A DNA stretch of 32,000 nt from NCBI GenBank assembly GCA_043815805.1, contig JBDRIN010000004.1, positions 1-32,000 on the forward strand, read 5' to 3'. A program made the translations under genes and the position numbers. Shown in pieces: positions 3,068 to 21,327 of this stretch; within the stretch, counting starts at the first letter, position 1; the number at the start of each line of letters is the position of its first letter. This stretch comes from an archaeon. Its GTDB lineage: Archaea > Nanobdellota > Nanobdellia > Woesearchaeales > JBDRIN01. The notes below the pieces were generated by a model that was not told the DNA's origin, searched no databases, and saw only the letters and a list, made by a program, of their open reading frames with translations.

Positions 3068-3310
3068 CAGAACGTGAGGTGGACGCGGTCGTAGGAGGCC
3101 ATGACAAGGTCGCTAAATACCATCGGCGCCTTGGTCTCGCTTGTTGGCCGCGTCCCCTCCGCTGAGAACGGAAGAGGATTACGCATCCAAGGAGAAGCAT
3201 CAGAAAAAAAGAATCCCTAGTTAGGGATAGAAAGTGAGGTGAACCTGAAACAAGACTTGGGTTGAATCATTGTTGAGTCACTCCTGGCTTTCCAAGAGAA
3301 AGGCAGACCA

Positions 3311-5416
3311 ATGCAGCCAGATGCTTTCCAAGCGCATCCTGTGACCTTCCCACGAGAACCTTTGTGGGAGAGGAACATCAGGAAGAAGGATCGGTTGCGG
3401 ATCGTCAACGAAGGTGACTTTCCGCGTGACGCACTCCTGGCAGGAATTGGAGTTGGCCAGTCACCGCTCAAGGATACCTTTGGCATCACGGACCCGGACG
3501 AGATCCGTCATCGGAACGGTCTTATGTGGTGGCTGTTCGAGAACCCTCAGGCCTGCAGGTGGATCAAGGCGGCCGATAAGGAAAGGCGGCCCCTGCCGGT
3601 CACGCAAGAAGAGTTCCTCAAGTACTTCGACCGCAGGAGGACGCACAATCCTCACTGGACCGCGGTTCACAAGTTCATCGAGATCTGCGATGCAGCCGGG
3701 AAGCTTCCACCACGGCTCCGTACTATGGTCAACACGTTGAAGGCCAGCCTGCCTCTCGAAGGAGACGAGCAGCGGATGGCCGACTTCCTGTCTGACCAGA
3801 TTGTGAACATCACGGTCATCGAGGGTCTTCTCGAGTTCACGATCAAGATGGACACTGAGTGGGACCATCGAGGTGAAGGAAGGGGAAAGATCCAGGGCCT
3901 CGAGGATATCAACCTGGTCGAGGATACGATGCGTGTCTGGGGTCACAGCATGTACTCCTACGCGCTCAGCGAGACCGCGCTGGTGACGTACCCCGACTGG
4001 GCCAAGAAGGGTAAGTGGAACCCGGTCAACTGGATAGGTCTGGGCTGGTTCGTGCGACGCAAGATCAAGAAGGAGAACGCGGCGCGCAGAGCGGCGGCCT
4101 ACAAGGAGACCGTCATCACCCACTTGGACGGTGGTCTGGCAATAGAAGTCGAGAGAGGGGTGCTCCAGCGGCTCAAGCAGATCGCTTGGATGAAGATGTA
4201 TCCCAAGGACAAGGTGAGGTTCCAGGGCGCCACGGCCAAGGTCTACTTCTCTTACTCCAAGGAAGGCCTCTGGATCCACATCTATGGGATTGAGCCGGCT
4301 CCCTCAGCTTCGAAAACCATGTTCACCTACGGCATGTACGCGGGCTACTCTGAGAGTCGCAGGGTCGTCATCGCGAGCGGCCAGGCCGACTTCCAGAAGG
4401 AGCTTTCGTCGTACAACGACGAGATGGAACGCGCAGGCATCCGTCTGATGATCCGGGAACATGATCAAGGGCTTCCGGAGAATCAGAAGATGACGCTCCG
4501 GGACGAGTGGGCTGATCTTGTCCCTGTGGGCGAGACACCTCCGGATGCGCGTCAGATGCTCTTCCGCCAGAGCTTCAGGATACCATCTCCGGCGACGGAC
4601 AGGAAGTACCGCTGGTTCGCGCTCAGCAACCTCTACCAGGGACCTGTGCTACACGAAGTCTACGAGGCTACGAGGCGGCACCGGATCTGGTTCGAGCGTC
4701 AGCTGAATCTCCTCAAGATGGTCGCGGACCTGGCAGACGGCCAGCGCGAAACCGCCCTGAAGATCGGCTCTCCGCTTTCAAGGCCAAGGCTGGCTACGAA
4801 TGGCGAGCAGGTTGTTTCGTTCGACGAGATCTACCCCATGCACCTCATCTCCACTCTCGGCGGACGGAGGCCTGTCCCGATTAGGGAACTGCCTGTAATC
4901 AACGGACAGATGATCGGATTCACAGGCTACCACGGCGGCGGCAAGAGCGTGGCCGAGTTGAGCGTCACCGACCACATCTACATCGTCCAGAGCGGTCTGC
5001 TGGCCTTCGGCACGGGTTGGGTTTCTAACCCCAAGAAGATGATCGGTCTGGTCTTCATCGAGCGCGGCGATGGCTCGACGTTCCAGCTCCTGCTGCAGAA
5101 GATCACGAACGTCCTGCTGGAAAGCAGGCACTACCATCCGAGCGAGGTGATGGTCATCCTGGACGAGTTGGGCACCGGTACCCAGGAAGCATCCGGTCTT
5201 GATGTCGGAAAGGATGTTCTGGCGAAGCTGCAGAGGATGGGTATACCCACTCTCTTCAGCACCCAGATCACAGACCTCGCGACGTTCGCGGAGGACGAAC
5301 TCGGAGCGCAGTGCTTCAAGTTCGACCGACACCACGGCATCACGCCAGGTATCGGTGACGGCGGGGCGAAGGACCTGATGAAGCGTATGGGTCTTGCACG
5401 TCTCGTTGCCAACTAG
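3311..5416 (+). CDS. MutS-related ATPase (MutS core-like N-terminal region plus MutS domain V ABC-type ATPase); no mismatch-binding or nuclease domain evident
   Basis: Walker A is GYHGGGKS and Walker B is VMVILDELGTGT. A GDGSTF block sits where MutS has STF, and LFSTQITDL sits where MutS has (F/A)THxxEL. The N-terminal ITDPDEIRHRNGLMWWLFENP resembles the MutS core-domain 'I..R.d.V..L..n' helix. Confidence 0.7.
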   Translation: MQPDAFQAHPVTFPREPLWERNIRKKDRLRIVNEGDFPRDALLAGIGVGQSPLKDTFGITDPDEIRHRNGLMWWLFENPQACRWIKAADKERRPLPVTQEEFLKYFDRRRTHNPHWTAVHKFIEICDAAGKLPPRLRTMVNTLKASLPLEGDEQRMADFLSDQIVNITVIEGLLEFTIKMDTEWDHRGEGRGKIQGLEDINLVEDTMRVWGHSMYSYALSETALVTYPDWAKKGKWNPVNWIGLGWFVRRKIKKENAARRAAAYKETVITHLDGGLAIEVERGVLQRLKQIAWMKMYPKDKVRFQGATAKVYFSYSKEGLWIHIYGIEPAPSASKTMFTYGMYAGYSESRRVVIASGQADFQKELSSYNDEMERAGIRLMIREHDQGLPENQKMTLRDEWADLVPVGETPPDARQMLFRQSFRIPSPATDRKYRWFALSNLYQGPVLHEVYEATRRHRIWFERQLNLLKMVADLADGQRETALKIGSPLSRPRLATNGEQVVSFDEIYPMHLISTLGGRRPVPIRELPVINGQMIGFTGYHGGGKSVAELSVTDHIYIVQSGLLAFGTGWVSNPKKMIGLVFIERGDGSTFQLLLQKITNVLLESRHYHPSEVMVILDELGTGTQEASGLDVGKDVLAKLQRMGIPTLFSTQITDLATFAEDELGAQCFKFDRHHGITPGIGDGGAKDLMKRMGLARLVAN

Positions 5417-5662
5417 TTCGACGAGGAACCGGGGGCTGGTATGATTTGCATGAGCGAGTTGTGCTAGCCCCTTTCCTCACCTGACTTTAGAATCATGAGC
5501 CATTGTTTGGCTGAAGGCATAAAGAGTGACAGATGGATGACAACTTGGATGACATCTAATTCCATGCGAAGCAAGCAGTAGCACATCGAAAGACTGCCGT
5601 AATCATGGCAGCAGAAAGGAGAACATCCAAACCAGGCTTGGGTGTTGTTATACTTTCTACTC

Positions 5663-5761
5663 GTAGAACAAAACGGAGGTGCTCCCTGCAGGAGATGCTG
5701 GACCCATTTCTGGCATCGCTCGTCCTGCAGGGACCCTCCCGCGGGAGGAAACCTCTACCAG
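5663..5761 (+). repeat. Copy A of a conserved structured ~100-nt element (candidate cis-regulatory RNA or sRNA)
   Basis: The element reads GTAGAACA..GGAGGT(P1)..CTCCCTGCAGG(P2)..hairpin..CCTGCAGGGA(P2')..CCTCCCGCGGGAGG(P3)..ACCTCT(P1')..ACCAG. It ends 30 nt before ATG 5792. Confidence 0.55.
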
Positions 5762-5791
5762 TTTTTCGCCATAAGGCGAGGAGTGTAACAG

Positions 5792-6589
5792 ATGCGAAAG
5801 TACACATTGGTTTTGGTCCTGGTGCTCATCGCGATGATGGTGGGGATGGCTTCTGCCTATCCTCTCCTCATTCCAAGGAAGGCTGTGGGAGATCCTGCAG
5901 ATGAGGGGTACGAGAGGTTCGAGGAGGCCTGGGATCGGCTCTACTATGCTGCCACAGACCACTACCGCTATGTTCCAAGGGTTGACGAGCGGCTGAACGC
6001 GTTCAACTACATCAACGACAGGCCGTTGGACGAGCAGGCCAAGTACAACATACTCCGCGTGCAGGGCCATATCGCCAACACGGCGGTGATGAGTCGCCTG
6101 TTCGAAGTTGTCGGCAATCTCTGGCTCGAAGAGCTGCGCGAGGTCGAGAACCCGGTCAAACGCAAGAGCATGTTCTATAGTCGCTTCTGCGACCAACTCC
6201 CCGTGCTCTTCAGAATCCTGAACGGGGACATTGAGCGGGCGCAAAAGTTCCTTGGACGGAACAAGCACATCAAGGCCGACAGTGAGTCCAACGGAGTCAG
6301 GATCTACCCCGGCTGGTACGACGACGACTTGCCGGAGATTATGGATAGCTGGAACACGCGCGCGGGGGTGTGGAGTCGCAACAAGCGTGTCTGGGATGGT
6401 TTCCTACTTCCTGAGATCAATGCCTGCGACGACATGAGGGACGCGCTCGTGAAGTACGACGATCTCAGCATGGAGGAAGCGTACGCGTTGCTGGACAGGT
6501 ACTTCGGCATTGCATACGGTCCGGACGACGGCGGCTTGGTCTTCTTGCCGTACACGCCGCGGGAAGAGTTGCGGTCGAGGACCGAGTGA
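5792..6589 (+). CDS. Secreted protein, unknown function
   Basis: ORF track. GAGGAG lies upstream. The signal peptide is MRKYTLVLVLVLIAMMVGMASA|YP. The sequence is rich in aromatic and acidic residues. No family recognised. Confidence 0.55.
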   Translation: MRKYTLVLVLVLIAMMVGMASAYPLLIPRKAVGDPADEGYERFEEAWDRLYYAATDHYRYVPRVDERLNAFNYINDRPLDEQAKYNILRVQGHIANTAVMSRLFEVVGNLWLEELREVENPVKRKSMFYSRFCDQLPVLFRILNGDIERAQKFLGRNKHIKADSESNGVRIYPGWYDDDLPEIMDSWNTRAGVWSRNKRVWDGFLLPEINACDDMRDALVKYDDLSMEEAYALLDRYFGIAYGPDDGGLVFLPYTPREELRSRTE

Positions 6590-6600
6590 TCGACGGAGAA

Positions 6601-6706
6601 GTAGAACAGTGGAGGCTCCCTGCGGGGACGGTACTGACGGTGTTAAGGGGGACCCTGATGTACTTAGTTCCTGCAGGGACCTCCCACGGGAGGTTAGCCT
6701 CAACAG
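6601..6706 (+). repeat. Copy B of the same structured element
   Basis: The element reads GTAGAACA..GGAGGCT(P1)..CTCCCTGCGGG(P2)..CCTGCAGGGA(P2')..CCTCCCACGGGAGG(P3)..AGCCTC(P1')..AACAG. It starts 12 nt after the stop at 6589. A further GGAGGTAGAACA occurs at 6719-6730. Confidence 0.55.
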
Positions 6707-6835
6707 AGTTCGAAGATCGGAGGTAGAACAACACAACGTCCTAGCCGCGGCGGCAGTCTGACAACGCTGCTCAACAACGGTCTGGCTGGGAACCGGATTC
6801 GTTTAGAAGTAGCCGCGGTATAGGATAGGCCCAAA

Positions 6836-6882
6836 GGAAGAGGCGTAGGTTCGCCAGAAGTAATCCGCCTGTGCCTCTTTCC
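6836..6882 (+). repeat. GGAAGAGGC...GCCTCTTTCC hairpin upstream of ORF 6918
   Basis: It has a 9-bp stem with one bulged T and a 28-nt loop. It is related in sequence to 7608-7659 and, at its 5' arm, to 9901-9942. Confidence 0.45.
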
Positions 6883-6917
6883 TAGGGCTCGGACATATTC
6901 CCCTGGAGGAAAAGGTT

Positions 6918-7145
6918 ATGGTAAAGAAACGCGGTGGTGAGGCTCCCCTGCCAAGATACACCAGAGGTGCTGCCCTGAACAAGGCTGCAAGTCCCAGCTA
7001 CAAGTACAAGCTCACCAAGAGCACTCGGGCTGGTGTCGAGGAGTGGGAGAAGGATCCAAACCAGGATCCGAACAAGCTCATGCACCAGATTACTGCGAGT
7101 GCGGTGGCGAGGGAGTTCGGCTGGGTGATCATCGAGGACGAATAG
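6918..7145 (+). CDS. Small soluble protein (75 aa), unknown function
   Basis: ORF track. GGAGGA lies 7 nt upstream. Third codon positions are mostly G/C by hand count (about two thirds), consistent with coding in this GC-rich segment. Confidence 0.45.
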   Translation: MVKKRGGEAPLPRYTRGAALNKAASPSYKYKLTKSTRAGVEEWEKDPNQDPNKLMHQITASAVAREFGWVIIEDE

Positions 7146-7428: not shown

Positions 7429-7607
7429 GGCTTCGTAGGAACTAGGGTCCGTGGCCCTAGAGGTGCTGGCTGCTTTTGAGCCAGCTGTTGGAAGCGTTCT
7501 AGTTGGGAGGGACGCTATGTGCACTGCTGTCCTTGGTCTGAAGTTGGGCTTCCGAGCAAATCAAGATATCAGGCGCACGGGAGCTATGAGGCTAAGGATA
7601 GTCCTAT

Positions 7608-7659
7608 GGAGAAGGGCGTGGGTAGTTTTTGTTGGGCTGAATGCCTGCGCCTCTTCTCC
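7608..7659 (+). repeat. GGAGAAGGGCG...CGCCTCTTCTCC hairpin upstream of the TPR lipoprotein gene
   Basis: It has an 11-bp stem with one bulged T. The flanks (CCTGCGCCTCTTCTCCTGGGG) parallel those at 6868-6887 (CCTGTGCCTCTTTCCTAGGG). Confidence 0.45.
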
Positions 7660-7771
7660 TGGGGTTTTGGAGTACCCTAACTCGGAAACAAGGTCTGGCT
7701 TGTAAGCTAGACTTCTTGATAGATTACATGAGTGTAACTCAGGATCCAAAGACAAACGAAAGGAGCTAAAG

Positions 7772-9239: not shown

Positions 9240-9587
9240 TTGAAGAAAGCCCTAATCACATTCGCAGGGATGATCGTGTTTGCGCTTATCGTGGCGGTGA
9301 TAGCGTCTTTTGTGGACGACCCGAACGATATGACTACAACCGTGCTGGTTACCATCTTCGTGACCATGATTGTCTCTTTCATGGCGACCCAAGACGGACA
9401 GCGAGGCGCCCTCATAACCGTGCTGGTAGCAGTGTCGATGATTGGCGGCTGCAGCGTGGGTCTGATGGCGCCATGGAAAGAACCTGTTGTCCAGACCGAA
9501 GTGACGACAGATGTCGAGGACAACGGCGACACCGACACGACACTGACAGTCTGGGAGGAAGGAGGACAGGATGTTCCAGATCACTAG
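9240..9587 (+). CDS. Small membrane protein (about 3 TM) with acidic C-terminal tail
   Basis: The track starts at GTG 9231, which lies inside the SD AAGGAGGTGA. TTG at 9240, 8 nt after GGAGG, gives MKKALITFAGMIVFALIV... and is the more plausible start. Confidence 0.5.
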   Translation: MKKALITFAGMIVFALIVAVIASFVDDPNDMTTTVLVTIFVTMIVSFMATQDGQRGALITVLVAVSMIGGCSVGLMAPWKEPVVQTEVTTDVEDNGDTDTTLTVWEEGGQDVPDH

Positions 9588-9882
9588 GCGCATCCTGGGG
9601 AACAACAGAGGGGATACCCTGGTGGCCATGGCAGGGTTCATGGTGTTCGTCTTCCTCCTCTTGACTCTGCTTGCGCATTGGGGCATTTACGGATTCCCCC
9701 AGGGCGTAATCGTGGAGCTCGGAACAGTAAGTGCCAACACAAGTAGTGCGGGACTCTACGAACCAATAGAGCTTCCCGAGTGGGCTGGTGCTTTGCTGTT
9801 CGCAATGCCATACATCATCATATTCACGGTGCTCACTTTGCTAGAGAAGCCCAAGAAGCTCGTAGCGGAATGTACTGACTAG
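9571..9882 (+). CDS. Small membrane protein (2-3 TM)
   Basis: ORF track. GGAAGGAGGA lies upstream of ATG 9571. It overlaps the previous ORF by 17 nt. Third codon positions are G/C-rich. Confidence 0.5.
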   Translation: MFQITRRILGNNRGDTLVAMAGFMVFVFLLLTLLAHWGIYGFPQGVIVELGTVSANTSSAGLYEPIELPEWAGALLFAMPYIIIFTVLTLLEKPKKLVAECTD

Positions 9883-9902
9883 AACCTCCATCATCGTACG
9901 AA

Positions 9903-9942
9903 GAGGCAGAACTCAAGGCTGTTAATCTTGAAGTTCTGCCTC
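9903..9942 (+). terminator. Strong stem-loop closing the GC-rich gene block (no adjacent U-tract)
   Basis: GAGGCAGAACTCAAG (9903-9917) pairs with CTTGAAGTTCTGCCTC (9927-9942) with one bulge and a 9-nt loop. It lies 21 nt after the stop at 9882. A T7 run occurs only at 9980-9986. Confidence 0.4.
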
Positions 9943-10019
9943 GCCTAAGCGTGATTGTGTGAGCAACTGGATTTCCGGCTTTTTTTATGTACTATTTATT
10001 TTCTATATGGAAAGTTATT

Positions 10020-10692
10020 CTTACAGGTCAGGCCCCCCAAGCCCTTAAGGGCGTGGTACCATGGCCTGACCTGCGAATTGCTTGAGGGATTTCTGCAATC
10101 CGTACTGCCCCGTTGTGTTGCTCTCCCTGATGTAATGGTCTATCACCCCTCCTGTTACACTCCCCACGGTTCTCGAGAATGTGAAGGAACTCCACAACGC
10201 TTTGTACTTTCTCCTCCATGTCTGCATTTTGCGTATCTTGTAGCTTGTGTAGCCTTTCAATAGTTGAAAGGCTTTTGCCACAGACATGGTCCGTGGCAGA
10301 CGCACAAAGACGTGTACATGATCCTTCATGACTTTGCACTCGAACACTTCGATGTCGTGCTTTTTCGCCGCAACCTCTATCAGGTTGCGGCATAGCTTTG
10401 CCATACCCTCACCCTCGAAAGTTGGGTAACGATACTTGGTCACCCAGATCATGTGGTACGTGTTTTGGCTCACTCCGTGAGCCGATTTAGTCAGAACTTC
10501 GTATTCCATATTTAGCACCTCCGCAAATTTTTTATACTAGCGAGGCATAGCTAACACTAACTTAGACGTTGTTTGAATGCGTCGGCTACGCCACGCATTC
10601 ATTCTTATATTTTCTCGAGAATAAATAGGTTTTGCTTCGCAAAACCTAAAGGGGCTTCACTCGACGGGCTGAAGCCCGCAGTACCTCGCCCC
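10020..10692 (-). mobile_element. IS200/IS605-family insertion sequence (tnpA only); boundaries approximate
   Basis: A Y1 transposase ORF is flanked by subterminal hairpins typical of the family: 10024-10073 (CAGGTCAGGCC...GGCCTGACCTG with an inner GCCCTTAAGGGC), 10574-10601 (TGAATGCGT...ACGCATTCA), 10627-10647 and 10652-10677. The whole unit is bracketed by similar AT-rich hairpins at 9994-10019 and 10693-10718. Confidence 0.6.
10045..10518 (-). CDS. tnpA: IS200/IS605-family Y1 (HUH) transposase TnpA
   Basis: Motifs are YHMIWVTKYRYP, the HUH motif HVHVFV, LKGYTS, LWSS..F.RTVG and a C-terminal HYIRES tyrosine motif. The last ~9 codons run into the terminal hairpin. Confidence 0.85.
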   Translation of the reverse strand: MLNMEYEVLTKSAHGVSQNTYHMIWVTKYRYPTFEGEGMAKLCRNLIEVAAKKHDIEVFECKVMKDHVHVFVRLPRTMSVAKAFQLLKGYTSYKIRKMQTWRRKYKALWSSFTFSRTVGSVTGGVIDHYIRESNTTGQYGLQKSLKQFAGQAMVPRP

Positions 10693-10754
10693 ATTTATTT
10701 TCAGTATAGAAAATAAATAGGTTTTTATACTTATATATTTATATAATAGGAAAG

Positions 10755-11818: not shown

Positions 11819-12787
11819 ATGGAAAACCTTTTAAATCACTCTAAGTTTTTTCTTTCTATGTTCATACATACCATCGATCCGACATTATTTAGCCTGGGAC
11901 CTTTCCCAGTGCGCTTCTATGGCATTGTCTATGCAGTTGGATTCCTGTTCATGTATTTTTACCTTTATCAGGCAGCCAAGAAAGGCAAGATAAAAAACCT
12001 GAAGCCTGTGGATGTTGATTGGCTCGTGATATTCTTGATTATCGGCGTCCTAGTAGGAGCTAGATTCTTTGAAGTCGTAGTATACAATCCAGGATATTAC
12101 TGGCAATATCCACTAGATATCCTTAAGATATGGCAGGGCGGCTTGAGTTTCCACGGAGCCTTGCTGGGAGTTTTCATCCTGACTTGGCTCTACTCAAGAA
12201 AAAGAGACATCAACCTGTTCGAGATATTAGATGTTGCTGTGATTCCTCTGACAATATTTTTGTTCCTGGGAAGAATCGCTAACTTTGTTAATGGAGAACT
12301 GTGGGGAACAGTGACCAATGTTCCCTGGTGCGTAAAATTCCAGGGAGTGGAAGGATGCAGGCACCCATCGCAGATATACGAATCCCTAAAGAATCTGGGA
12401 TTGTTCTTCATACTTTTCTTCACTTCAAAACACAAGAAAGACAGGAAACCAGGATTCATATTCTGGCTGTTCGTATTACTATATGGTATATTCCGATTTG
12501 TCATAACCTTCCTGCGCTTCGACGACCTGTATTGGGGATTGAGCAAAGGACAATGGTTGTGCGTTGTCATGATAATCCTGGGCGCCTACATGCTTTACAG
12601 GATGAAAAAGCAAAAAGAATTTAAAGTTAAGAAAAAAGAGAAAATAAAAGAAAAAAAAGAAGAGAAGAAAGAAGAAAAGGCAGAAAAGAAAGAAGAACCT
12701 GTTGAAGAAGAGCAAGTAAAAAAAGAGAAAGAAGTCGAACAGCAGGTCGCTGTGGACGAGCAAGCTTCGGAGGAAAAAAATGATTAA
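11819..12787 (+). CDS. lgt: Prolipoprotein diacylglyceryl transferase (bacterial-type Lgt) with K/E-rich C-terminal tail
   Basis: Lgt-typical blocks are FSLGPFPVRFYGIVYAVGF, WQGGLSFHGALLG, GRIANFVNGELWG and RHPSQIYES. The start could instead be Met14 (11858). The last ~60 aa form a KEKK/EEKK low-complexity tail. Confidence 0.85.
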   Translation: MENLLNHSKFFLSMFIHTIDPTLFSLGPFPVRFYGIVYAVGFLFMYFYLYQAAKKGKIKNLKPVDVDWLVIFLIIGVLVGARFFEVVVYNPGYYWQYPLDILKIWQGGLSFHGALLGVFILTWLYSRKRDINLFEILDVAVIPLTIFLFLGRIANFVNGELWGTVTNVPWCVKFQGVEGCRHPSQIYESLKNLGLFFILFFTSKHKKDRKPGFIFWLFVLLYGIFRFVITFLRFDDLYWGLSKGQWLCVVMIILGAYMLYRMKKQKEFKVKKKEKIKEKKEEKKEEKAEKKEEPVEEEQVKKEKEVEQQVAVDEQASEEKND

Positions 12788-14899: not shown

Positions 14900-15595
14900 A
14901 TGATAGAAGAAATTTCACCATCGGAACTCGTGGAAGCATTGGCAAAAGAGATGCCCAAATTAGTTCAAAAACCGGAATGGGCAGACTTTGTCAAGACCGG
15001 AGTGCACAAAGAAAGGCCGCCAACCAAAGAAGACTGGTGGTATATACGGACAGCTGCTGTCCTAAGGACAGTCTATGTCAAAGGCCCGATCGGTGTCTCT
15101 AAGCTCAGGACCAAGTACGGCGGAAAAAAGAACCGAGGTGTAAAACCAGAGCGCTTCAAGAGAGGAAGCGGCAAGATTCTAAGGACAGTCCTTCAACAGC
15201 TAGAAGCGGCTGGTCTCATAAAACAAGGCAAGGTAGGCGTGCATAAAGGCAGGATGCTGACTGCTAAAGGAAAAAAATTGATGAAAAGCGCAGCAGAGAA
15301 CCTGTATAAGACTAAGCCGAAGCCAGCGCCTGAACCAACGCCTAAGCCTGCACCGGCAGCAACACCGGCGAAGCCGGCAAAAGAGCCGCAGCCCAAGGCT
15401 CCAGAACCAAAGAAAGAGGCAAAAGCAGAAGTGAAGGCTGAAAAGAAAACAGAAGAGAAGAAACCCGAAGTCAAAGAAGAGAAAAAACATGAAGTGAAGA
15501 AAGAAGAACCTAAGAAGGAACCTGAAACAAAGCCAAAAGAAGAAGGCAAGGTCGCTGCAGCAGAAACCCCTGCTGAAACTAAAGATAAGAAGTGA
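14900..15595 (+). CDS. rps19e: Ribosomal protein eS19 with ~95-aa K/P/E/A-rich C-terminal extension
   Basis: eS19 blocks are PEWADFVKTGVHKERPP, DWWYIRTAAVLR, GGKKNRG and ILRTVLQQLE. The tail starts around KPKPAPEP. Confidence 0.9.
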   Translation: MIEEISPSELVEALAKEMPKLVQKPEWADFVKTGVHKERPPTKEDWWYIRTAAVLRTVYVKGPIGVSKLRTKYGGKKNRGVKPERFKRGSGKILRTVLQQLEAAGLIKQGKVGVHKGRMLTAKGKKLMKSAAENLYKTKPKPAPEPTPKPAPAATPAKPAKEPQPKAPEPKKEAKAEVKAEKKTEEKKPEVKEEKKHEVKKEEPKKEPETKPKEEGKVAAAETPAETKDKK

Positions 15596-15775: not shown

Positions 15776-16447
15776 ATGGCAGATAAAAAGACTGAGAAGA
15801 CAGAAGAGAGAACCTACAATGTCCCTCTGAGAAGGGGCTATGTTAACAGTGCCAGGCATAAGAGGACCAAGAAAGCAGTCTCTATCCTCAGGAACTTCGT
15901 GAAGAAGCACATGAAAGTAGACGAAGTGAAGCTAGGTCAGAACCTTAATCTGGAGCTATGGAAGCATGGCATAAAGAATCCTCCTCATCATGTCAAGATA
16001 ACAGTCACCAAAGAAGACGGCGTTGCTAAGGCAGAGCTTGTGGGCTTTGATTATAAAGAAGAGAAGAGGCCTGAGAAAAAGGTCGAAGAGCAGACCAGTC
16101 TCAAAGATAAGTTGGCTGCAAAGCTAGGCGTGAAAGAAGAAGACGCAGAAGAGGAGAAACCTAAGAAAGCAAAGAAGGCTGGAGAAAAGCCAGCAGAAAC
16201 AGAAAAGAAGGAAGCGCCTAAATCAGAAGAGAAGAAAGAAGCGCTCAGAAACCAGAAGGTTTCTGGCGTGTTAGAAACGGAAAGCGTTTCAAACACTCCT
16301 GCGCCAGCAGCAAAAGAGCCACCTAAAGCTCCTGAACCTAAGGAAGAAGAGAAGAAACCTGAAGTGAAAGAAAAACCGGCTGAAAAAGAAGCTGAGAAAA
16401 AAGATAATCCTAAACCTGAATCTAAGCCGAAAGAAGATAAAAAATAA
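15776..16447 (+). CDS. rpl31e: Ribosomal protein eL31 with ~130-aa K/E/P-rich C-terminal extension
   Basis: The core is ERTYNVPLRR...RHKRTKKAVSILRNFVKKHM...VKLGQNLNLELWKHGIKNPP. It lies immediately after rpl39e, as in many archaea. Confidence 0.85.
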   Translation: MADKKTEKTEERTYNVPLRRGYVNSARHKRTKKAVSILRNFVKKHMKVDEVKLGQNLNLELWKHGIKNPPHHVKITVTKEDGVAKAELVGFDYKEEKRPEKKVEEQTSLKDKLAAKLGVKEEDAEEEKPKKAKKAGEKPAETEKKEAPKSEEKKEALRNQKVSGVLETESVSNTPAPAAKEPPKAPEPKEEEKKPEVKEKPAEKEAEKKDNPKPESKPKEDKK

Positions 16448-20489: not shown

Positions 20490-21248
20490 TTATTTCTTGG
20501 CTTCTGGCTTCTTGGCACCTTCAGCAGGCTTAGCTTTACCAGCTGCTGGTGCTACTTCTGCAGGTAACAATTTAGTTATCAAAGATTCAGGTATGCCGGA
20601 TTCTGTAAGCTTGGTCTTGATAGCAGATCTCTCTTTGCCTTCCATGCTCTTTATTATTGAATTGGCAGTCGCCTCTAGCTCTGCATGTTTCTCTGCCAGG
20701 TCTGCCTGCATCTTCTTCTTCTCTTCTTCAAGCTCCTTCTGCTCTTGTGCAGAGATCTCGGTCTTCTCTTCTTTTATCTCTTTGTCGAACTTGCCTTCAG
20801 CCACTAATTTGAGAGCTTCAACCGCAGGCTTGCCTTCTACTTTGACGCCCATGGAATTGCATGTCCCGATTATCTCGCGGACCTTTTCTTTCAAGGTCTT
20901 GCCTAGCAAAGAATCTTCCTTCATCTTCGCTATCTTGATTATCTGCTCGATGACAAGGTCTGCCACGTGCTCTTCCTGAGGCCTTCCAGAACCCTTGTCG
21001 ATCTTGGCTTCTTTCTTTATCAAAGAGGCTGCTGGAGGCGTACCTATCTCTATTGAGAATTCTTTAGTATCTGTATCTATGATGACTTTTACAGGGACCT
21101 GCATGCCTTTGAAGGCTTCTGTTTTTTTATTTATTTCTGCTATAACCTTACTTATATTGACTCCTTTTGGACCTAAAGCAGGTCCTAGTGGCGGTGCTGC
21201 ACTAGCTTTTCCGCCTGCAATCAACGCATCAACTGTTTCTTTTGCCAT
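20490..21248 (-). CDS. rpl11: Ribosomal protein uL11 with ~95-aa C-terminal extension
   Basis: MAKETVDALIAGGKASAAPPLGPALGPKGVNI...VPVKV is canonical uL11. The core ends near ...AEGKFDKEI. It is followed by a coiled-coil/K-A-P-rich tail. The track start (21290) lies inside an upstream hairpin, so I prefer ATG 21248, about 24 nt below the TATA box. Confidence 0.9.
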   Translation of the reverse strand: MAKETVDALIAGGKASAAPPLGPALGPKGVNISKVIAEINKKTEAFKGMQVPVKVIIDTDTKEFSIEIGTPPAASLIKKEAKIDKGSGRPQEEHVADLVIEQIIKIAKMKEDSLLGKTLKEKVREIIGTCNSMGVKVEGKPAVEALKLVAEGKFDKEIKEEKTEISAQEQKELEEEKKKMQADLAEKHAELEATANSIIKSMEGKERSAIKTKLTESGIPESLITKLLPAEVAPAAGKAKPAEGAKKPEAKK

Positions 21249-21269
21249 CTTTTTAGAAATTATGAGCCC

Positions 21270-21277
21270 TTTATAAA
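21270..21277 (-). promoter_or_regulatory. TATA box (TTTATAAA) for rpl11
   Basis: It directly abuts the 21279-21302 hairpin and lies about 24 nt upstream of ATG 21248. Confidence 0.5.
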
Positions 21278-21278
21278 G

Positions 21279-21327
21279 CTTTTCCCTCATCAGAGGGAAA
21301 AGTTGCGAATGGTAATGAGCTAAGTTT
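21279..21327 (-). repeat. Copy 1 of a hairpin plus 25-nt conserved tail element (spt5-rpl11 spacer)
   Basis: CTTTTCCCTC-ATCA-GAGGGAAAAG forms a 10-bp stem. It is followed by TTGCGAATGGTAATGAGCTAAGTTT. Compare with 24224-24270. Confidence 0.6.

Follow-up and report, generated by a model that had tools for sequence, protein, structure and literature searches.

Several kinds of short folded sequence are known from the spaces between genes. The ERIC/IRU, Correia (CREE), BOX and RUP repeats are structured intergenic repeats of ~100-150 nucleotides (nt) that are co-transcribed with flanking genes and have documented effects on mRNA processing and stability, and in phage T7-type mRNAs intercistronic hairpins (at the T7 sites, single ones that contain an internal loop) serve RNase III processing or stabilise 3' ends. 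Repetitive extragenic palindromic sequences (REPs) of the GTAG type are single stem-loops of 20-40 bp with a 6-13-bp stem, a short loop and an unpaired GTAG 0-2 nt from the stem foot, and REP copy numbers run from tens to hundreds, with inverted dimers as the main arrangement (Di Nocera et al. 2013, PMC3733652). Integron attC sites are structure-defined sites of 57-141 nt located right after cassette open reading frames (ORFs) and bounded by R''/R' boxes (RYYYAAC ... GTTRRRY); they fold as imperfect hairpins consisting of an R box, an unpaired spacer, an L box with extrahelical bases and a variable tip, and of the two strands the bottom one has the more stable fold and contains the G:T mispairs (Nivina et al. 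2016, PMC5027507). We compare with these systems an element of ~100 nt, found in two copies (A and B) in the first 32,000 nt of contig JBDRIN010000004.1 (assembly GCA_043815805.1), which is assigned to an archaeon of the Woesearchaeales; this whole stretch is called the window below. Our tentative reading, to which we give a little less than an even chance, is that the two copies are a lineage-private structured intergenic repeat whose role in mRNA would be that of a gene-boundary, stability or translation module.

Copy A (5663-5761) and copy B (6601-6706) are both on the + strand of the single contig, in direct orientation and 938 bp apart, and each comprises three helices within a length of 99-106 nt. 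Between them lies a + strand gene (5792-6589) for an ORFan protein of 265 amino acids (aa) with a Sec-type signal peptide (MRKYTLVLVLVLIAMMVGMASA). The original prediction, made from the sequence of the window, had proposed two copies of one element with shared blocks, and the sequence confirms all of these. The interval it gave, which ran to 6730, contains both copies, but its end takes in the head of a different structure. Both copies start with the head GTAGAACA (5663-5670 and 6601-6608), which is conserved at 8 of 8 positions and begins with a GTAG (at 5663 and 6601), with 8 nt (A) or 7 nt (B) between it and the first helix. This helix, P1, pairs GGAGGT (5675-5680) with ACCTCT (5751-5756) in A and GAGGCT (6612-6617) with AGCCTC (6696-6701) in B. 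P2 is a GC-rich helix of 10-12 bp with near-palindromic strands and a variable tip, formed by TCCCTGCAGGA (5683-5693) and TCCTGCAGGGA (5723-5733) in A and by CCCTGCGGGGAC (6618-6629) and GTTCCTGCAGGG (6667-6678) in B. Its interior in A (within 5694-5722) has an apical hairpin of its own, and the apical insert in B (6630-6666) is unrelated to that of A. P3 is CCTCC-CGCG-GGAGG in A (5735-5748; strands 5735-5739 and 5744-5748, loop CGCG) and ACCTCC-CACG-GGAGGT in B (6679-6694; strands 6679-6684 and 6689-6694, loop CACG), and P1 and P3 are composed of Shine-Dalgarno (SD)-like GGAGG paired with anti-SD-like CCUCC. The copies end in the conserved tail ACCAG (5757-5761) in A and AACAG (6702-6706) in B.

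The position of the copies relative to the gene is as originally described. The distance from copy A to the ATG at 5792 is 35 nt counted from the end of P1 and 30 nt from the end of the conserved ACCAG, and copy B starts 12 nt past the TGA stop (6587-6589). The head before copy B, taken at its full extent (GATCGACGGAGAAGTAGAACA, 6588-6608, + strand), overlaps this stop codon and has an imperfect repeat 9 nt past copy B (GATCGGAGGTAGAACA, 6715-6730, + strand), which holds a third GTAGAACA (6723-6730). The body of copy B is in this way flanked by an imperfect direct head repeat of 16-21 nt (GATCG..GGAG..GTAGAACA), and past the second head there is a different GC-rich branched structure, with stems on CCGCGG at 6744-6749 and 6812-6817. 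The head sequence occurs three times in the window against 0.78 expected, always on the + strand and inside the two intergenic regions. In the predicted folds, the head of copy B is single-stranded and that of copy A is able to pair with an upstream UUCUAC.

The similarity between A and B is beyond chance. When the two intergenic regions are aligned locally, the best match is a 26-nt block made up of the 3' strand of P2 and P3 (TCCTGCAGGGACC(C)TCCC(G/A)CGGGAGG, z ~8-9), with a score reached by none of 500 dinucleotide shuffles, and the 5' blocks are collinear with it. A local alignment of the same regions with cheap gaps was uninformative and the stricter scoring was used instead. Divergence between the copies is concentrated in one part: 48 of 65 positions (74%) are identical in the core, consisting of the helices and their flanks, compared with 10 of 29 (34%) in the P2 tip (Fisher p = 5e-4), which also differs in length by 12 nt. 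The original prediction had likewise described the P2 insert as differing between the copies and as forming its own hairpin in A. This uneven divergence argues for constraint on the helices and flanks and against uniform decay, and the perfectly conserved 8-nt head argues against neutral decay in the same way. The core differs by ~26%, yet not one helix position is broken. Small ORFs within A or B were considered and rejected, as they have no common frame before a 1-nt indel and no conserved N-terminus.

Folded without constraints by RNAfold, both copies adopt the same three-way junction, in agreement with the three-helix architecture first proposed. Its joining strands are 0-2 nt long, the junction being nearly fully paired, and they differ between A and B (GC/-, C/-, AA/U). 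The bias towards the + strand also stood up: relative to dinucleotide shuffles, the fold z is -4.2 (A) and -3.0 (B) on the + strand and -2.3 (A) and -2.0 (B) on the - strand. With DNA parameters the top strand is again the more stable (-23.9 versus -22.1 kcal/mol for A and -22.0 versus -17.6 kcal/mol for B), and it is the + (top) strand that carries all of the wobble pairs. The folded form would thus be either the sense RNA or the top strand of DNA.

In a structure-guided alignment of the two copies (gaps in B written as N, register of P1 fitted to the structure), all 43 of the 43 scorable helix cells are paired. The original prediction had seen compensatory changes here, and of this claim the complete pairing stands, whereas the changes themselves are of a weaker kind. 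P3 is invariant between the copies. The changes in P2 are two and one-sided, both from A-U to G-U (A5690 to G6624 and A5693 to G6627), giving the wobbles G6624-U6672 and G6627-U6669 in B, where a single A-to-G change had been reported. On the - strand these would read as C-A mismatches, and they had been taken as tolerated only in + strand RNA; since G-T wobbles are tolerated in folded single-stranded DNA too, the wobbles alone are no proof of RNA. As for P1, the helix does pair in both copies, but three double changes are obtained only when B is moved one base against the conserved GGAGG/CCTC. In the sequence-homology alignment the core GAGG:CCUC is identical in A and B, and B adds one inner C-G pair, so that the proposal of different sequences that still pair depends on the 1-nt shift in register. 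A shuffle control of the pairing (49 of 500) is uninformative because only two sequences are aligned, which leaves its statistical power at nil. The two copies are at best thinly suggestive of compensatory change, being consistent with it and stopping short of a demonstration, and a conserved structured RNA backed by covariation is not established.

Directly 3' of copy A, a hairpin of 9 bp is predicted on the + strand (UUUUUCGCC-AUAA-GGCGAGGAG, 5762-5783) that pairs the SD sequence of the 265-aa gene (GAGGAG, 5778-5783). In a partition-function fold the SD bases are predicted to be unpaired with a probability of 0-0.15. An outer helix of A (AAAAC 5670-5674 with GUUUU 5761-5765) is predicted to compete with this hairpin for the U-tract, and the state that contains it, placed 3.2 kcal/mol above the minimum by thermodynamic prediction, frees AGGAG. 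Upstream of copy A, at a distance of 110 nt, a bipartite block (ATAAAGAGTG-N14-ACTTGGATG, 5519-5551, + strand) is repeated exactly at 146-180 (two matches, none expected), where it ends 25 nt ahead of the ATG at 205. This block may be a promoter, comprising either a TATA-like box and a start region or two sigma-factor boxes, as its spacing and position suggest. If 5519-5551 is a promoter, A lies within a leader of ~245 nt and B is on the same transcript. Over these two intergenic regions the block can be written ATAAAGAGTG-N14/16-ACTTGGATG, and a similar sequence is found at 3227-3263. The six matches of the repeated block in viral contigs are all chance matches in the coding sequence of AT-rich phages.

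Other signals were sought around the copies. A sigma-70 promoter before each copy was rejected, since an extended -10-like TGTTATACT is present at A only and at neither B nor the third head. A selenocysteine insertion sequence (SECIS) or readthrough signal at the TGA stop was ruled out by an in-frame TAG four codons downstream. Neither copy has an intrinsic terminator, that is, a GC-rich hairpin with a direct U-tract: in A a UUUUU lies 5 nt past P1 and is weakly flagged, and a U-tract is missing from B. The surrounding gene island has no excess of terminator-like sites (7 versus 6.5 expected). The ATG following copy B is 212 nt away.

This island is the left part of a composite window. Positions 1 to ~9990 have a GC content of 56% and contain eleven ORFs, all on the + strand, with GGAGG-type SD sites ahead of the start codons. 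Among them are diderm-bacterium-like genes (a Porin_O_P-like protein, and a TPR protein that is a lipoprotein with a lipobox) and several ORFans with signal peptides or membrane helices. Positions 10720-32000 have a GC content of 43% and encode archaeal proteins (S19e, L31e, L15e, Spt5, thermosome and FtsZ). The join in composition reflects either DNA that a small archaeal genome acquired horizontally or an assembly chimera, and no contig among the public contigs spans 9534-9996. In the island, the long spacers (204-375 nt) have a fold z of -2.8 to -6.3 on the + strand and of -1.0 to -3.3 on the - strand, compared with an average of ~-1 on either strand (range ~+1 to -3) for coding controls. 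The exceptions are the first intergenic region, which is cut by the window end (z -1.05), 6715-6917 (z -1.4) and the short 9883-9990, which does not stand out. The sense-strand-structured spacers include 3068-3310, 5417-5660 and 7429-7771, and their stems are often on the palindromic cores CCGCGG and CGCG. Strong hairpins begin 1-21 nt past the stop codon in all five of the five genes that precede a long spacer. The whole island may be transcribed as a long, heavily folded RNA.

Further copies and relatives were searched for widely. As the original prediction had it, the element belongs to no RNA family known to Rfam: at gathering thresholds Rfam 15 matches nothing in the window, and at E <= 10 it gives three chance matches to snoRNA models in 5400-7000, none of them on A or B. 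A covariance model built from copy A and the N-padded copy B was run over the whole 32-kb window with filters off and recovered A (111 bits), B (79 bits) and no third copy. The region of the third GTAGAACA (6723-6809) scores 10 bits (E 0.38) and is not a third copy of the body. The pattern of the P2 3' strand and P3 has no match in viral contigs or in GTDB genomes (species representatives), and its two matches in JGI metagenomes, both antisense of a transporter gene, were set aside as chance. The same applies to one viral and two genome matches of the 5'-half pattern, all of which lack the P2 3' strand and P3, and to two viral matches of a pattern for P2 alone, which are in coding sequence; on inspection, every one of these matches lacks the element's other half. 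Blastn against phage and plasmid collections found no match. The 265-aa protein belongs to no Pfam, NCBIfam or PHROG family and nothing homologous to it was found in 5.8 billion proteins or in 1.84 billion cluster representatives. The porin-like protein has homologues at 27-30% identity only, and a 701-aa MutS_V-like protein (3311-5416) has a single homologue, at 40% identity, on a contig of 30% GC, at whose locus the P2 pattern is absent and one chance GTAGAACA is present. In five public groundwater DNA runs the organism is present at 2-8x depth, with no sequence variants. An absence of further homologues had been expected to point to a simple local duplication or a REP-like DNA repeat. None was found in any collection scanned. 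The search probably came back empty because the island is from an unsampled lineage without sequenced relatives, and its outcome does not establish a new RNA family, nor does it turn the element into a trivial duplication.

The repeat, its common fold, its strand bias and its uneven divergence are direct observations, and it is on these that we build the reading of A and B as a gene-boundary module. It is supported by the unconstrained fold common to both copies, with better z values and energies on the + strand under RNA and DNA parameters alike, by the complete pairing with both P2 substitutions kept as G-U, by the sense-structured long spacers and post-stop hairpins of an island whose genes are all on the + strand, and by the predicted SD-sequestering hairpin directly after A with its alternative state 3.2 kcal/mol up. 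In the mechanism that we infer, the copies would work in the transcript of the sense strand of a one-directional gene cluster. Copy B, which stacks a helix of ~18-24 bp and starts 12 nt past the stop codon, would either block exonucleases as a 3' or intercistronic structure or serve double-strand-specific cleavage. Copy A, at the end of the leader and beside the sequestering hairpin, would set the exposure of the SD sequence of the 265-aa gene through competition for the U-tract between the outer helix AAAAC:GUUUU and that hairpin. Transcription of the copies, processing or protection by B and the effect of A on translation are all parts of this model.

Several observations weigh against it. 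The copies are only two, on one contig, and no homologue was found in any scanned collection. P2 and P3 are kept as sequence, beyond what pairing requires, and the same would be expected of a young DNA repeat or a protein-binding palindrome. The architecture by itself is not rare, as a loose descriptor of the three-way junction matches ~53 places in the window. The conserved single-stranded head GTAGAACA has no role in the model. Finally, in the metatranscriptomes of one groundwater study the sole contig from the island (4042-4268) is inside the 701-aa gene, and none is on the element.

A rival reading is a dispersed mobile DNA repeat of the REP, REPIN or palindrome-associated transposable element (PATE) kind, which an HUH/Y1 transposase would propagate in the form of folded single-stranded DNA. 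The head GTAGAACA would then be the recognised head or target, the body-less GTAGAACA at 6723 an unoccupied target, and any effect in RNA a by-product. The unpaired conserved head indeed starts with GTAG, which tags the largest REP super-family (PMC3733652); conservation of the helices extends to their sequence, with near-palindromic strands in P2; the body of B lies between the imperfect head repeats; further short modules are common to the intergenic regions; a Y1 transposase gene is 3.3 kb away; and G-T pairs and a top-strand bias also fit single-stranded DNA. However, an element of 99-106 nt with three helices differs in size and shape from a single hairpin of 20-40 bp, its GTAG stands 8 nt (A) or 7 nt (B) from the helix and not at the stem foot (PMC3733652), and only two copies, in direct orientation, are present in the ~10 kb visible of this genome, the covariance model finding no others in the 32 kb. 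Seen as a PATE or miniature inverted-repeat transposable element, it has no terminal inverted repeats (TIRs) and no target duplication around A; the head repeat flanks B, and GTAGAACA is 5' of both bodies and once alone. A REP-associated tyrosine transposase (RAYT) flanked by the same repeats was not found in the window: its only Y1 transposase (10045-10518) is of the IS200 type (96.6 bits with the IS200 model, 42 bits with the RAYT model against a cut-off of 80), and it has its own AT-rich ends, unrelated to A and B, and lies within the 43% GC part. We regard a mobile repeat as rather doubtful. A decaying local duplication without function is an unlikely origin, in which an intergenic segment would have been copied along with the insertion or duplication of the orphan gene, the fold inherited and the P2 tip replaced by an indel. 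Two direct copies 938 bp apart, the lack of homologues elsewhere and the near-identity of P2 and P3 in sequence would all fit, whereas the strongly uneven divergence of core and tip, the absence of any broken helix position at ~26% core difference, and a head that is single-stranded in B, kept at 8 of 8 positions and found a third time would not.

The geometry of the locus recalls an integron-type attC or other folded-DNA recombination site, the 265-aa ORFan and B forming one cassette and A being the site of the preceding one. The unit would measure ~950 bp (5762-6711) in a one-directional array, with B 12 nt past the stop codon and the tail of A 30 nt ahead of the start. Both copies are bracketed by AAC and GTT (GTAGAAC...GTTTTTC in A and GTAGAAC...GTTCGAA in B), and the unpaired spacers of copy A, 5 and 4 nt, are those of the canonical attC site of aadA7. 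The bracketed lengths of 103 and 114 nt, the variable centre and the conserved outer helices also match features of attC sites (PMC5027507), and the outer helix, the spacers and the stack of P1 and P2 are readable as attC-like. Against this, the strand rule is reversed, as the top strand is the stabler here and carries all wobbles, the R boxes depart from the RYYYAAC/GTTRRRY consensus outside the AAC and GTT triplets, and the conserved side hairpin P3 is extra, with no counterpart in attC sites. The other intergenic regions, at 240-375 nt far longer than an attC site, contain no such sites, which number two in all. No integrase was found in the window, and no recombinase domain was detected in the ten largest ORFs of 1-10 kb with Pfam or in ten ORFs (nine in the island) with NCBIfam, ~10 kb of the contig lying outside the window. 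We hold a recombination site to be distinctly unlikely. A ligand- or factor-sensing RNA of the riboswitch type, with the junction as sensor and the SD hairpin after A as expression platform, would account for a three-way junction whose P1 3' side adjoins the predicted sequestrator, for two states within 3.2 kcal/mol and for structure specific to the sense strand. It appears very unlikely, because there is no conserved unpaired core or pocket in the nearly fully paired junction and B has no expression platform, no start site following it before the ATG 212 nt off. The regulated gene is moreover an ORFan and so offers no metabolic logic, and neither an Rfam match nor homologues were found. Operators in double-stranded DNA, where a dimeric regulator would bind the palindromes CCCTGCAGGG (two per copy) and CCTCCCGCGGGAGG, are in our view extremely improbable. 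The blocks are palindromic, perfectly or nearly so, and their sequence is conserved, and the two centres of CCTGCAGG lie 39 bp from each other in A and 51 bp in B, differing by roughly one turn of the helix; but P1 complementarity and changes to G-U only are meaningless for duplex binding, one of B's half-sites is degenerate, the Pfam and NCBIfam scans gave no regulator gene, and B is placed after a stop codon with no promoter-like site nearby.

We also considered that a new class of structure-defined site, belonging to an unsampled groundwater lineage, is seen here for the first time, and we think there is only a small chance of this. Such a class could be a cistron-bracketing, cis-acting RNA module, in which paired 5' and 3' three-way junctions of SD and anti-SD sequences would control translation and mRNA ends, or a cassette recombination site, specific to the top strand, that would delimit ORFan cassettes without a classical integron.

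Other features of the window were recorded alongside. A 16-mer (GGTCTGGCT(A/G)GGAACC) occurs at 128-143 and 6779-6794, in different structural contexts, and its first nine bases also at 7692-7700. TAG(G)AAC-type motifs are intergenic in five of their seven + strand occurrences, intergenic sequence making up 17% of the total. The first intergenic region (1-110, cut by the window edge) has a GC-rich stem of 12 bp (GCGCGGGGCTTG / CAAGTCCCGCGC) followed by a CUCC/GGAG hairpin, as well as TCAACAG, the same tail as in copy B, and may be a diverged and truncated relative of the element; a public contig of 241 nt reaches 66 nt beyond this edge. The 701-aa protein has a weak C-terminal match to MutS domain V (ABC-type ATPase), and the neighbours of its homologue are glycosyltransferase and pilin-like genes. 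At the break in composition there is an insertion sequence of the IS200/IS605 type (9992-10720; tnpA 10045-10518, - strand) with a 22-nt AT-rich inverted repeat (CTATTTATTTTCTATA(T/C)(G/T)GAAA) and several hairpins at 10570-10690, and diverged copies with AT-rich flanks are present in one public run (X2). In the archaeal part, several proteins have long extensions past their Pfam domains (S19e, 231 aa; L31e, 223 aa; L11, 266 aa; Lgt-like, 322 aa; extension regions 12600-12750, 15400-15590, 16130-16440 and 20490-21290), and in at least three cases (the Lgt-like protein, S19e and L31e) they are low-complexity tails rich in Lys and Glu, with purine-rich repeats as their coding sequence. The Lgt-like protein (11819-12787) matches the bacterial-type prolipoprotein diacylglyceryl transferase (E 4.5e-70), an enzyme unexpected there.

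If the gene-boundary module is functional, it would be a structured module from a lineage with essentially no sequenced relatives, and it would give a handle on the transcript organisation of an ORFan-rich island, since the long spacers look like folded sense RNA. Its present practical value is the covariance model, which can serve as a seed for searching the source genome or related groundwater genomes in future.

Among known systems, the element resembles REPs and BIMEs (bacterial interspersed mosaic elements) by being intergenic, GC-rich and palindromic with an unpaired GTAG-type head, in its location, as REPs are often just downstream of coding regions, between co-directional genes and grouped, and in G-T pairing, which for REPs points to a role at the RNA level (Di Nocera et al. 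2013, PMC3733652). It is unlike a REP in its ~100 nt, its three helices, a head 11-12 nt from the first helix and its occurrence as only two direct copies. With attC sites it shares the AAC/GTT ends, unpaired spacers, a variable centre and ORFan cassettes in a single orientation (PMC5027507), and it differs from them in the reversed strand rule, the unmatched R-box consensus, the extra side hairpin and the lack of an integrase in the window and of a regular array. The shape of A with its adjacent hairpin is that of three-way-junction riboswitch aptamers with an SD-sequestering platform, although the conserved unpaired core of these is absent, B has no platform and Rfam gives no match. It is like the T7-type sites in presenting repeated sense-strand stacked helices of ~20 bp between co-directional genes, with an architecture that recurs as the sequence differs; in contrast to these it is no single hairpin, and no phage context is seen (PHROGs give two weak matches only, of unknown function and to the MutS-like protein). 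The stacked helix of copy B close to the stop codon is the arrangement of 3' or intercistronic stabilisers of the REP or phage type and of double-strand-specific processing sites. In size class, modular conservation and variable internal parts the element is close to ERIC/IRU, CREE, BOX and RUP, which have TIRs and/or many copies and are found in known taxa, whereas it has no sequence similarity to them and neither a TIR nor a target site duplication. In this comparison the element belongs to a familiar kind, the structured intergenic repeat, within which it forms a new sequence family, and it is not yet a new RNA family.

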